Positions 5,980 to 10,400 of a stretch of DNA of 15,184 bases are shown here, piece after piece. The DNA lies in contig CAXTKV010000065.1 in the NCBI GenBank assembly GCA_964244895.1, forward strand, positions 7,955 to 23,138, read 5' to 3'. Every line of letters starts with the position of its first letter. Positions within the stretch are counted from its first letter, which is position 1. The position numbers and the translations under genes are program-made. The notes beneath the pieces are model-generated. The model ran no database searches. It was not told where the DNA came from and saw only the letters and a list, made by a program, of their open reading frames with translations. This stretch comes from an uncultured Deinococcales bacterium (GTDB taxonomy: Bacteria > Deinococcota > Deinococci > Deinococcales > JAAFIG01).

Positions 5980-7995
5980 ATGATACGTAGCGGGTGGATT
6001 TCCATTGCGGCATTGTTCGTGTGTGGCACGCTGGTCGGTCTGGTTCGGGCCGCTCAACCACCAACTCGAGTACCTCCTGTCGGCCCTCTGCCCGTCATCG
6101 CGTCCACGGACGCGGCACCGCTCGACGGTTCCGTGGCCCTGGGGGTCTGCGCCGATTTCAAACTCAACCTGGGGGTCACGACGGTTGATCTGCCCGAGAT
6201 CGTGAGCAAGGGCGGCGATCCGGGATGGATATGGGTTCAAAAAGCTGTTCCTTCCGCCGCACGCTACCGGTCGGTGGTCGGCACGGTCACGAAAAGCCAA
6301 GTGACGTACGAGGATTTTCCCGCGTTGCACGATTCGCACGACATGAATGTGATCGTAAAGGTTGACCCGGCATATCGCGATCTGCTTTCCGATTCGAACG
6401 AACCGAACGAAGCCGATGAGGACGCTGTCCTTCCGGCCACATCAATCGAAACCGAATGGGAGATCGGAACCTTCCCCAACGAACACGCCAAGAACTCGCC
6501 GGAACGCTTCATGCCCAAGTGGACCTGGCCGAGCATCGGGGATCGCGTCTGGATCGAAGGCAACTGGATTTTCGATTGCGGTCACCCGAAGCTCATCGGC
6601 GGCAAAAAGCACTACCGCACCGAAATCCATCCGCCTCGAGCCATCGCGACCATGCACCAGCAGGTTCGCCGCATGGCGGCGGCCAACGCTTTCGTGCCCG
6701 TGACTGCGACCAATTTGTACATCCACGGTCGCGGCGGGTACATCACGGACACGCTCAACTGCGGGGCGAAACTGATCGTGTCCTCCAACCCGAATTCCTG
6801 CCCGACCAAGACCACGCCGATCAACGACCGGTACGAGTTCGACATCCTGGCTCCACCCAGAACCAGCCCGAGCGCCAGCCTGATCACGGAAATCGTGACC
6901 GGGCCGGGCAACAACGTTTCCATCGCTCCGATACTCGAGGCGCACCCGGAGAACAACCCGCCGAGCGTCCACGTCACGGTTCCGCTGAAGGGAACCGGCG
7001 TGCAACCGACCGACACCTACGCCCGCCGGATTTACGTCGGCTGGAACGTGCCATCCCGCCGGAACGTGCTGCATCTGCGCACGACCCTCAGCAAGATGGA
7101 TTTGCACGAGGATCAGGATCTCGATCCGGGCGATTGCGAATGCACGTTCTTCTGGATGAACATCAACAAGGCCGAGAACGCCTGGATTCGCCTGTCCGAT
7201 TTCGCGCAGGGCAACATGAACGACTACGACGACGATGGCGGCCTGGGGAATGGCGAAATGAGTTTCCGGGGGGCCACATTCGATTTTTACCTGCTGGACG
7301 GGGACACGTTCACCGTGCGAGCGAACGGTTACGATCAGGATTGCTTCGATAATCTGTTCGGCAACCACAAGTTCACGGTCTCGTCCTTCGCCAACTGCTA
7401 CATTGGCACGGGCGCGTTCAAAGCAGAACCTGGCGACAACGACCCGTTTGCGGCACTCGAGAAGAATTACGGCGCGCCGTCCTACGGAACCGGTAAACAG
7501 GACGTGACGGCCAAGGGCGAGTACGAACTCGAGTTCACCACCACGCTGCTTGAAACCATCCCGCCACCACCCGACCCGACCAAGACCAAGATCGGTGAGC
7601 GCGCCCGCGTCAAGATCAACTACATCACCATCGTCGACGATTGCGACGGTTTCGGCGCGGGTGACGGAGACATGTACGGCGAGCTTCGCGTCAACGGGCA
7701 GCTGCTGTGGTCGGTGCCCGAAAGTCAGAACATCAAGCGCGGCGATGGCGACCGGATCGAGATCAACCGATTCGTGGATCAGAACTTCCTGAATGCCTCC
7801 GGCGGTGGTTTTCAAATCACGGGTTTCGTCAACGACAGCGACAGCGGCCTGACGGGCAAAGACGACAAGGTCGGCGTCTGGAACCTGACCGAAAACTTCC
7901 CGTTCAATTACGGCAACCGCGACGTTCGCAGCAAACCCGACTGCGAATCGCGCCTGAATTACACCGTCGAAAAAGTCAACGATATCGTTCAGTAA
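5980..7995 (+). CDS. Secreted multidomain protein of unknown function
   Basis: 671 aa; signal-peptide-like N-terminus ending VRA; GGGGGTGA SD; GC3-biased codons; WIEGNWIFDCGH...TEIHP motif; two Asp-rich beta domains separated by PPPPDP. Confidence 0.8.
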   Translation: MIRSGWISIAALFVCGTLVGLVRAAQPPTRVPPVGPLPVIASTDAAPLDGSVALGVCADFKLNLGVTTVDLPEIVSKGGDPGWIWVQKAVPSAARYRSVVGTVTKSQVTYEDFPALHDSHDMNVIVKVDPAYRDLLSDSNEPNEADEDAVLPATSIETEWEIGTFPNEHAKNSPERFMPKWTWPSIGDRVWIEGNWIFDCGHPKLIGGKKHYRTEIHPPRAIATMHQQVRRMAAANAFVPVTATNLYIHGRGGYITDTLNCGAKLIVSSNPNSCPTKTTPINDRYEFDILAPPRTSPSASLITEIVTGPGNNVSIAPILEAHPENNPPSVHVTVPLKGTGVQPTDTYARRIYVGWNVPSRRNVLHLRTTLSKMDLHEDQDLDPGDCECTFFWMNINKAENAWIRLSDFAQGNMNDYDDDGGLGNGEMSFRGATFDFYLLDGDTFTVRANGYDQDCFDNLFGNHKFTVSSFANCYIGTGAFKAEPGDNDPFAALEKNYGAPSYGTGKQDVTAKGEYELEFTTTLLETIPPPPDPTKTKIGERARVKINYITIVDDCDGFGAGDGDMYGELRVNGQLLWSVPESQNIKRGDGDRIEINRFVDQNFLNASGGGFQITGFVNDSDSGLTGKDDKVGVWNLTENFPFNYGNRDVRSKPDCESRLNYTVEKVNDIVQ

Positions 7996-8059: not shown

Positions 8060-9505
<1,446 letters not shown>

Positions 9506-9518
9506 GGTGAACCTCATT

Positions 9519-9550
9519 CAAAGACGCCCGAGCCAGTCTGGACTCGAGCG
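9519..9550 (-). promoter_or_regulatory. Hairpin in cysS leader (candidate attenuator)
   Basis: Minus strand CGCTCGAGTC-CAGACT-GGCTCGGGCG (10 bp, 2 G.U) followed by TCTTTG, just before the cysS SD. Confidence 0.4.
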
Positions 9551-9591
9551 GGAAAGGGCGTGTCAGGAAACCGGACAGGCGTGAAAGCCGC

Positions 9592-9672
9592 TCAGGGACA
9601 GCAACAACACACCACGCGAGCATCGGCTCGAGCGGCGCGGTCGGTGTTCACATGAAGGTCGCGTCGTGTCAT
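9592..9672 (-). CDS. Putative poly-Cys leader peptide of cysS, MTRRDLHVNTDRAARADARVVCCCCP
   Basis: Hand translation: ATG(9672)...GTG GTG TGT TGT TGC TGT CCC TGA(9592); 86 nt upstream of cysS; TATACT 8 nt before the ATG. Confidence 0.75.
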   Translation of the reverse strand: MTRRDLHVNTDRAARADARVVCCCCP

Positions 9673-9680
9673 TTGAGACG

Positions 9681-9686
9681 AGTATA
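9681..9686 (-). promoter_or_regulatory. -10 element for the leader peptide/cysS transcript
   Basis: TATACT-N8-ATG(9672) on the minus strand; no SD. Confidence 0.6.
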
Positions 9687-9732
9687 CACAAGCCGATTTG
9701 TGGGACGGGTCGCCTGGGGTACGGGAGCCAAG

Positions 9733-9785
9733 GAACACCGTCCTGGACGCTTCTCGAGAAGGCTGTCACCGACGGTATTCTCGAG
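9733..9785. repeat. Palindromic repeat, copy 7 (degenerate)
   Basis: GAACACCGTCCTGGACGC-TTCTCGAGAA-GGCTGTCACC-GACGGTATTCTCGAG. Confidence 0.75.
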
Positions 9786-9839
9786 CGGCACACATCGGTG
9801 TGTGGGTGCTGTCGGCGGGAAACGCGCAGCTTCTCGAGA

Positions 9840-10400
9840 TCAACGTTTTGTGACCCTGCCCAGCACGATCAACGCGCGGCGAAGGTCATCCATCGTGAAT
9901 CTCGAGGCCAACTTGCGACCTTCGGCCATCAAGGTCTGCGACCATTCGGCTTTGGCCTCGTCGGACATGGGCGGCAGGTCGCCGCGTTGGGCGCGGAAGT
10001 ACCGTTCCGCCAGGTGACCCAGCGTGTACGTGTTGGCGTACATCAGCGGTGCGTTCAGCAATCCGCCCAGCACGGGCATGGCGATCTTCAGGATGCCGCG
10101 CGTGACCTGCCGGGCAGCCCAGGCGTAGGCAAGCGTCCCGCCGAGTTCCAGCACGACCTGACGGGCGCGCTCGGTGCTCATGCTGAACCCGTGAACAGCG
10201 CCGATGTCCAGCACCAGCTTGACCTGCAACGGCACGATGGCCACCAAGTCCACCCACGGCAGGGGTTCGGCTGAAATCGCGGCGGTCAACAAGGCCGCGC
10301 TCTGCGTCAGTTGCGCGCTCCGTTCGCGCTCGAGATCGCCCGTGGGCGTCTCGATGGTCGTCAAATCCGGGGCGTTGTAGACCTGCAACTCGAGGCTCAC
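9840..10400 (-). CDS. DUF697/YcjF-like protein
   Basis: 186 aa; EPLPWVDLVAIVPLQVKLVLDIGAVHG and ANTYTLGHLAERYF segments typical of DUF697. Confidence 0.75.
   Translation of the reverse strand: MSLELQVYNAPDLTTIETPTGDLERERSAQLTQSAALLTAAISAEPLPWVDLVAIVPLQVKLVLDIGAVHGFSMSTERARQVVLELGGTLAYAWAARQVTRGILKIAMPVLGGLLNAPLMYANTYTLGHLAERYFRAQRGDLPPMSDEAKAEWSQTLMAEGRKLASRFTMDDLRRALIVLGRVTKR

Follow-up and report, generated by a model that had tools for sequence, protein, structure and literature searches.

A conserved leader with tandem cysteine codons upstream of cysS in an uncultured Deinococcales bacterium, a probable transcription attenuator

How an uncultured Deinococcales bacterium adjusts the synthesis of its only cysteine--tRNA ligase is the question raised by a stretch of its DNA of 15,184 nucleotides (the window, to whose positions the coordinates below refer). 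The gene concerned, cysS (8060..9505, minus strand), encodes a protein of 481 aa that scores 465.8 bits for the family TIGR00435 (cut-off, 340), and a genome-wide search returned it as the single match for a cysteinyl-tRNA synthetase (CysRS) in the source genome. Upstream of cysS lies a short open reading frame (ORF) with a run of Cys codons, which an initial annotation of this DNA had put forward as a candidate cysteine-sensing attenuator. On the other side, a gene converging on cysS (5980-7995, plus strand) encodes a protein of 671 aa with a signal-peptide-like N-terminus and no NCBIfam match.

The -10 promoter box TATACT (9681..9686, minus strand) is followed, after 8 nt, by the ATG at 9672, and the transcription start site would be expected at 9672-9674. 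This ATG opens a leader ORF of 26 aa, MTRRDLHVNTDRAARADARVVCCCCP and then a stop (9592..9672, minus strand), in which the four putative Cys control codons TGT TGT TGC TGT occupy positions 9598..9609 of the same strand. The 3' end of the ORF reads TGT TGT TGC TGT CCC TGA (9609-9592), the peptide ending in CCCCP, and the cysS ATG at 9505 follows the TGA after 86 nt. The -10 box, its spacing, the 26-codon ORF, the four Cys codons and the 86-nt gap had all been given by the initial annotation, and every one of them is exact in the sequence. It was also right in claiming that the leader ORF has no Shine-Dalgarno sequence, while cysS itself has the Shine-Dalgarno-like GAGGT at 9511..9515 (minus strand, read 9515-9511). 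The -10 box and homology suggest that the leader ORF is leaderless. Its frame stays open 5' of the ATG, up to a GTG at 9738, and a two-hexamer promoter scan, which demands a -35 box, gave no sites. In length, this leader ORF is the longest of the source-genome family, jointly with that of one relative (L003).

A gene of 186 aa (9840-10400, minus strand), with only a weak match to the slr1306 family, adjoins the cysS promoter upstream. Because a terminator scan demanding five T found no terminator between this gene and the leader, read-through from it into the cysS leader is possible. One arm of a REP-like inverted repeat, CCGTCC...ACGC...GCGT...GGACGG followed by TGTT, seems to lie just 5' of the cysS promoter (9747-9733 and nearby); the repeat recurs in many intergenic regions of the source genome.

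The frequency of such ORFs was estimated from a null set of all ORFs encoding 4-45 aa whose start lies 5-9 nt 3' of a TANNNT in the whole 5.1-Mb assembly (n = 1,257). Among these -10-led short ORFs, Cys was encoded in 435, CC in 27, and CCC or more in only one, which is the cysS leader; no second CCC leader was found in the source genome by the same scan. One of the 27 CC-containing ORFs (C19) was considered as a member of a Cys regulon and rejected, its gene encoding a low-complexity protein with no NCBIfam match. The Cys codons of the leader also differ from those of genes, as TGT accounts for three of the four in the leader and for only one of 34 (the other 33 being TGC) in 11 genes of the same genome. 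Across the 18 family leaders compared (L001-L018), the TGT/TGC counts were 40/11, against 5/34 in the family CysS genes. Both tRNA-Cys genes of the source genome have the anticodon GCA; TGT, read by wobble, would sharpen the response to low charged tRNA, and pairing needs of the RNA could also account for the TGT preference of the leader.

Conservation among relatives, on which the initial annotation had made its reading depend, was evident at two levels. A -10-led uORF containing Cys precedes cysS in 36 of the 41 Deinococcales genomes (30/30 loci of a first set and 6/11 of a second). Within the source-genome family, the Cys leader is present in 19 of 19 genomes, 18 of which have adjacent Cys codons, and in all 19 a -10 box (TATACT, TACACT or TATAAT) lies 6-9 nt 5' of the leader start. 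Leaders of the family and the order vary in length (6-30 aa) and in sequence, and beyond the Cys run the peptide is unconserved. Elsewhere in the order, Cys leaders were found in 6/6 Deinococcus-type loci and in 5/6, 4/5 and 2/5 loci of the remaining three families, one of the last two leaders (L030) being ambiguous, as it is a 30-codon ORF that overlaps the cysS start. The leaders of those three families mostly have one Cys, after Arg, and single-Cys leaders of distant relatives are weak evidence singly, since 435 of the 1,257 random ORFs hold a Cys. In four of the five genomes with no Cys leader (L113, L114, L115 and L118), the -10 box is 7 nt from the start of cysS, whose message would be leaderless and unattenuated in these relatives. 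Locus L058 has kept the promoter and the leader region with no Cys ORF, and L111 has no -10-led ORF.

A further 80 loci consisted of 7 leaders repeated from the sets above, 2 loci with no upstream DNA, 23 of the Deinococcota clade, 44 of other phyla and 4 of Polyangiaceae. The Cys leader was found in 22 of the 23 Deinococcota-clade loci; the 44 cysS loci from other phyla (neither Deinococcota nor Polyangiaceae) included three with a single-Cys ORF and none with a CC leader. The cysS leader is real, conserved and very probably functional. The Meiothermus-type leaders (n = 9) are of a different build, having 6-7 codons, an end of the form R-C-stop and a strong terminator 11-12 nt further on. The antiterminator described below was absent from the folding model in 9/9 of them, and their switch may act at the Arg codon or through another geometry.

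Between the leader ORF and cysS, a terminator hairpin and a competing antiterminator are predicted, both of which the initial annotation had missed. The terminator hairpin (3:4, 10 bp; 9525..9550, minus strand) has a predicted energy of -15.7 kcal/mol (z -3.4), and one of 200 shuffled sequences was as good. Its arms are built on CTCGAG, the 3' arm here being CTCGGG, and it is followed by the U-tract TCTTTGAA (9517..9524, minus strand). Among the 19 family leaders, none has a weaker U-tract than this one, with 4 T of 8 against 6-8 T of 8 in each of the 18 others. A terminator consensus scan, which demands five T, missed the hairpin at 9550-9525 and gave no sites. In each of the 19 family leaders, a T-run follows an arm of the CTCGAG type. 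CTCGAG is also the commonest 6-mer of the source genome, where its 21,883 copies (4.27 per kb) are 12.7-fold the number expected from base composition. Per kb, it occurs 5-7 times in loci of the family, 1-5 times in those of the Thermaceae type and 0-0.2 times in those of the Deinococcus type, in a HIP-like manner. A literature search on this abundance returned nothing on point, the available text of PMC4390886 mentioning neither CTCGAG nor Deinococcota.

The 5' strand of the antiterminator, segment 2 (TGAGCGG, 9588..9594, minus strand), overlaps the leader stop codon and would pair with segment 3 (CCGCTCG, 9545..9551, minus strand), which by folding is common to the antiterminator and the terminator. 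With its inner stem, the antiterminator has an energy of -18.4 kcal/mol, which was equalled by 13 of 200 shuffles (5 of 100 in another run), and among 16 family leaders only 9 had an antiterminator that 10 or fewer of 100 shuffles equalled. GAGYGG or GAGCGT occurs 10-19 nt past the start of the last Cys run in 18 family loci (L001-L018), and segment 2 starts in that same interval in all 31 anchored loci (33 tried). At one position of the stem, 13 family loci have T-A and a further 13, nearly all of the Deinococcus type, have G-C; this amounts to one event, in column counts that are rough, because regex anchoring lost L047 and L054 and segment 3 was mis-anchored in L015-L018 and probably in L039 and L045. 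The stem columns are mostly invariant, and covariation is therefore thin. In the MAFFT alignment of the leaders, one genus has its segment 2 displaced by 6 columns. Two other structures are predicted within the leader. A strong in-ORF hairpin containing CTCGAG (9608..9639, minus strand; -20.8 kcal/mol, z -4.1) was not equalled by any of 200 shuffles, and the leaders of most relatives are too short to contain one; a possible 1:2 hairpin (9587..9605, minus strand; -5.4 kcal/mol), for which 19 of 200 shuffles were as good, would join the Cys codons to the segment after the stop.

The behavior of these segments was modeled by folding only the RNA 3' of the ribosome, as far as the terminator loop, with all 5' RNA blocked. 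This blocking was chosen after a model that allowed upstream pairing gave no switch. For a footprint of 9 nt, segment 3 was tied up with a probability of 1.0 when the ribosome stood on the first or second Cys codon, 0.6 on the third, 0.13 on the fourth and 0.04 at the stop. The contrast between the first Cys codon and Pro or the stop was strongest for footprints of 6-11 nt, and at 12-15 nt the probability that segment 3 is tied up at the stop rose again to about half (0.47-0.55). Once pairing of the upstream RNA was permitted, no state left segment 3 free (tied up at 0.86-0.99) and the switch was gone, so that the modeled switch needs the RNA behind the ribosome to be unavailable. With the ribosome on the first Cys codon and the terminator complete, the antiterminated (-25.2) and terminated (-25.3) folds were about equal; without a ribosome, the fold was ambiguous, with no clean path from 1:2 to 3:4. 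Minimum-energy folds of the whole leader contained the terminator in both states, and no switch was seen in them. A contrast above 0.2 was obtained for 14 of the 18 scored family-group loci, 6 of the 13 Deinococcus-type and 0 of the 9 Meiothermus-type, the automatic pick of terminators having found none for L003 and L045 and the wrong stem for L007, L025 and L047.

The reading that we consider most likely is ribosome-mediated transcription attenuation of the classical kind, with the cysS leader sensing charged Cys-tRNA(Cys) and controlling cysS. The sequence, its conservation, the codon bias and the hairpin energies are the observations from which we infer the start site, translation, termination and the response to cysteine. 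Transcription would start at the AUG at 9672 or 1-2 nt before it, and the ribosome would load without a Shine-Dalgarno sequence, as shown for the orthologue of Deinococcus deserti. When Cys-tRNA is ample, the modeled ribosome would reach the stop and cover segment 2, segment 3 would pair with segment 4, and the 3:4 hairpin with its U-tract would bring RNA polymerase to a halt some 12-20 nt short of cysS. When Cys-tRNA is scarce, the ribosome would wait at the first Cys codons with segment 2 free, the 2:3 stem would form first and occupy segment 3, and the polymerase would read into cysS. The part of the initial annotation that read the leader as an attenuator is supported, and the anatomy of terminator and antiterminator suggests an output at the level of transcription more than the translational one of the mycobacterial poly-Cys ORFs.

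The terminator is also where doubt about this output arises, since the same sensor could act here through a decayed terminator, with a translational (by occlusion of the Shine-Dalgarno sequence), Rho-dependent or mixed output. Having the weakest U-tract of the family, the longest leader and the extra hairpin of -20.8 kcal/mol, this locus would suit such a change, and with the ribosome placed at the stop codon the predicted fold has a small hairpin covering the Shine-Dalgarno sequence; the mycobacterial Ms5788A offers a precedent, as far as the available text goes (10.1101/834739). However, the 3:4 hairpin stops 10 nt short of the Shine-Dalgarno sequence, with which it forms no pairs, that site is paired in the stalled-state fold too and hence does not discriminate, and 6-8 T were retained in 18/18 other family leaders; we consider this alternative unlikely. 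A role without any Cys-tRNA sensing, in which the uORF merely raises cysS translation by reinitiation or its peptide binds a metal or a thiol, is very improbable. A CCCC peptide could bind metal, but beyond the Cys run neither sequence nor length is conserved, and the preference for TGT over TGC would be invisible to a peptide. Reinitiation has been proposed at short leader genes of Deinococcus-Thermus (PMC4833913); the peak given in the available text of that study is, however, at about 10-13 nt in most groups, as compared with a gap of 86 nt containing a hairpin upstream of cysS.

Attributing the ORF to chance in GC-rich intergenic DNA, and the hairpins to the sheer abundance of CTCGAG, is scarcely credible. 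With one CTCGAG every 234 nt, hairpins of this sequence do arise easily, and a single Cys is common among random -10-led ORFs (435/1,257). Nevertheless, the lone CCC ORF of the 1,257 stands before cysS, 18/19 family leaders have adjacent Cys, and the Deinococcus-type loci, nearly devoid of CTCGAG, keep at the same site a hairpin with a U-tract made of other letters; conservation in the compared loci has already largely refuted this reading. Firmicutes control cysS by a T-box, and two sub-threshold T-box matches were found elsewhere in the source genome, yet a T-box or metabolite riboswitch to which the Cys codons are incidental can hardly be upheld here. Both T-box-like matches precede other synthetase-like frames (glycine and valine), and an Rfam search of positions 9300-10000 with E up to 1 gave only a chance miRNA match (E 0.74) outside the element. 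The view already taken, that a T-box is not what controls this cysS, agrees with the finding of no RF00230 match at the leader and of two elsewhere in the genome.

The initial annotation knew of no description of such a leader for cysS in Deinococcota. In fact, Deide_16409 of D. deserti was published in 2014 (de Groot et al., PMC4007540). As described in the available parts of that work, the D. deserti cysS message opens with a leaderless 10-codon, two-Cys ORF, MTALCCPSTR (Fig. 6 of that paper), whose start site was mapped on the AUG, at -121 from cysS, with TACACT 13 nt from the mapped start, and which is among 14 leader peptides predicted to attenuate transcription (PMC4007540). The row of the 33-nt leader in Table S2 of the same source reads 1317, 4930, 903 and 4402, and that of the 1,476-nt cysS reads 378, 30, 236 and 32, in unlabelled columns that we took as sense reads and with a 5'-end enrichment that confounds the leader/cysS ratio. 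The leader studied here is like Deide_16409 in its -10 box, its AUG-first cysS message, its adjacent Cys followed by Pro and the attenuation proposed, and the tree and the shared stem make it likely that the two are orthologous. They differ in size, with 26 codons, four Cys and a message leader of about 167 nt here against 10, two and 121 nt there, and in the terminator, which is based on CTCGAG here, with a weak U-tract and an extra in-ORF hairpin, and on CCGCGC/GCGCGG in the Deinococcus-type loci examined. The start site was measured for D. deserti and is predicted here, and the available text of PMC4007540 contains neither an antiterminator nor a cysteine test. An experimental test of a Deinococcota cysS leader was not found in the literature search, from which subscription papers were mostly absent.

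Leader-peptide attenuators with an aminoacyl-tRNA synthetase as target are exemplified by pheM-pheST. The cysS leader resembles pheM and the E. coli leader trpL in its control codons, its predicted overlapping 2:3 and 3:4 stems and its U-tract (with only 4/8 T here), whereas those leaders start from a Shine-Dalgarno sequence and the cysS leader appears leaderless. In the available text of two of our sources, trpL is the classical attenuator of this type (PMC4007540, 10.1101/834739). Also upstream of cysS, the uORFC-8-2 motif of Rhodobacterales has a tandem-Cys uORF, stems and a U-run, according to the accessible part of its description (PMC8632094). The mechanism proposed for it is the same, but it belongs to another phylum and its Cys codons are dominated by TGC instead of TGT (PMC8632094); no Rfam match links it to the leader described here, and we infer that the two probably have independent origins. 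In mycobacteria, leaderless poly-Cys sORFs such as Ms5788A, of the "Cys ribulon," were shown experimentally to sense Cys-tRNA (10.1101/834739, available text). Like the cysS leader, Ms5788A is a short leaderless ORF whose Cys codons form a run close to the end; it differs in its output, which is occlusion of the Shine-Dalgarno sequence, and in its targets, which are cysteine-metabolism operons, with no mention of cysS in the portion available (10.1101/834739). The corresponding pairing of Cys codons with the Shine-Dalgarno region was not seen here, since the partners of the Cys codons in the minimum-energy fold are local, within the 1:2 and in-ORF hairpins, and do not include 9515-9511. This kind of leader is already known from cysS of the same order.

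Other leaders of the source genome were sought by a blind scan for short -10-led ORFs that have a terminator and, beyond it, a further frame. It yielded 74, with the cysS leader outside them because the scan demanded five T. Twelve of them were chosen by eye and 11 were annotated. Nine leaders precede tyrS, leuA, proS, leuS, metG, trpE, aspS (non-discriminating), asd and a homocitrate synthase gene, and several have fitting codons, such as WWW before trpE and an N/D-rich stretch before aspS; M-rich, PP and KK leaders were also seen. This list mirrors that of D. deserti, except that proS and homocitrate synthase are missing from Table S9 in the available material (PMC4007540). The two T-box-like elements, both below the Rfam cut-off, lie before a glycine-tRNA-ligase-like frame (L165:1501-1697, minus strand) and a valine-tRNA-ligase-like frame (L166:1501-1750, plus strand), each named by eye, and in the second case a PIN-like frame stands between the element and its synthetase.

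About 150 nt to the left of window position 1, another leader ORF (L133:1794-1907, minus strand) has the core W-Q-x-[DE]-(L)-A-I-P-P-P (WQxDAIPPP). The gene behind it encodes a GabT-like aminotransferase, whose best NCBIfam matches are just under the cut-off and which is divergent from cysS in six family loci. IPPP is found in 18/18 family loci (WQ in 17) and in one further locus, and is absent in 4 of the 23 examined; the start is -10-led in 15/18 family loci. As synonymous codons vary in this leader, the peptide itself seems to matter, which makes it a candidate arrest-peptide or EF-P-dependent sensor. A literature search on it returned nothing on point, and it is possibly more novel than the cysS leader.

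The CysRS trees placed four Polyangiaceae proteins with the source-genome family inside Deinococcales (SH-aLRT 99 and 98 in two trees), and Deinococcota as one clade was rejected (p-AU 0.0009), in quick trees where the grouping was named after the tree had been seen and no other Myxococcota CysRS was among the sequences. The first tree included 85 of 112 full-length proteins, with 7 repeated and 2 incomplete loci omitted. Each of the four Polyangiaceae genomes has a second, distant CysRS, which lacks a Cys leader in 4/4. About 310 nt upstream of the Deinococcales-type gene lies a -10-led poly-Cys leader that is rich in TGT and ends in RR; it was found in 2/4 at the first settings and in 4/4 with a wider span and spacer. 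The stems of these leaders differ from the Deinococcales ones and are much longer. It is conceivable, and we put it forward tentatively, with somewhat more doubt than confidence, that CysRS and the Cys-tRNA sensor moved together as a module from the source-genome family to Polyangiaceae (Myxococcota), the terminator of the donor family having been rebuilt from the hyper-iterated CTCGAG palindrome. Against this, Cys leaders arose independently before cysS elsewhere, in Rhodobacterales, and the basis for co-transfer is the nesting of CysRS, not leader homology. Nothing on point was found on the Polyangiaceae CysRS in the literature search. If true, a ribosome-based Cys-tRNA sensor would have been exported across phyla as a module.

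The significance of the cysS leader itself is modest, as it is no new kind of system, and the side leads are more surprising. What the analysis adds is that the predicted attenuator would extend to an uncultured family and to most of the order, and that a concrete pairing of antiterminator and terminator, together with the TGT bias, makes the 2014 prediction for D. deserti directly testable in a laboratory Deinococcus.
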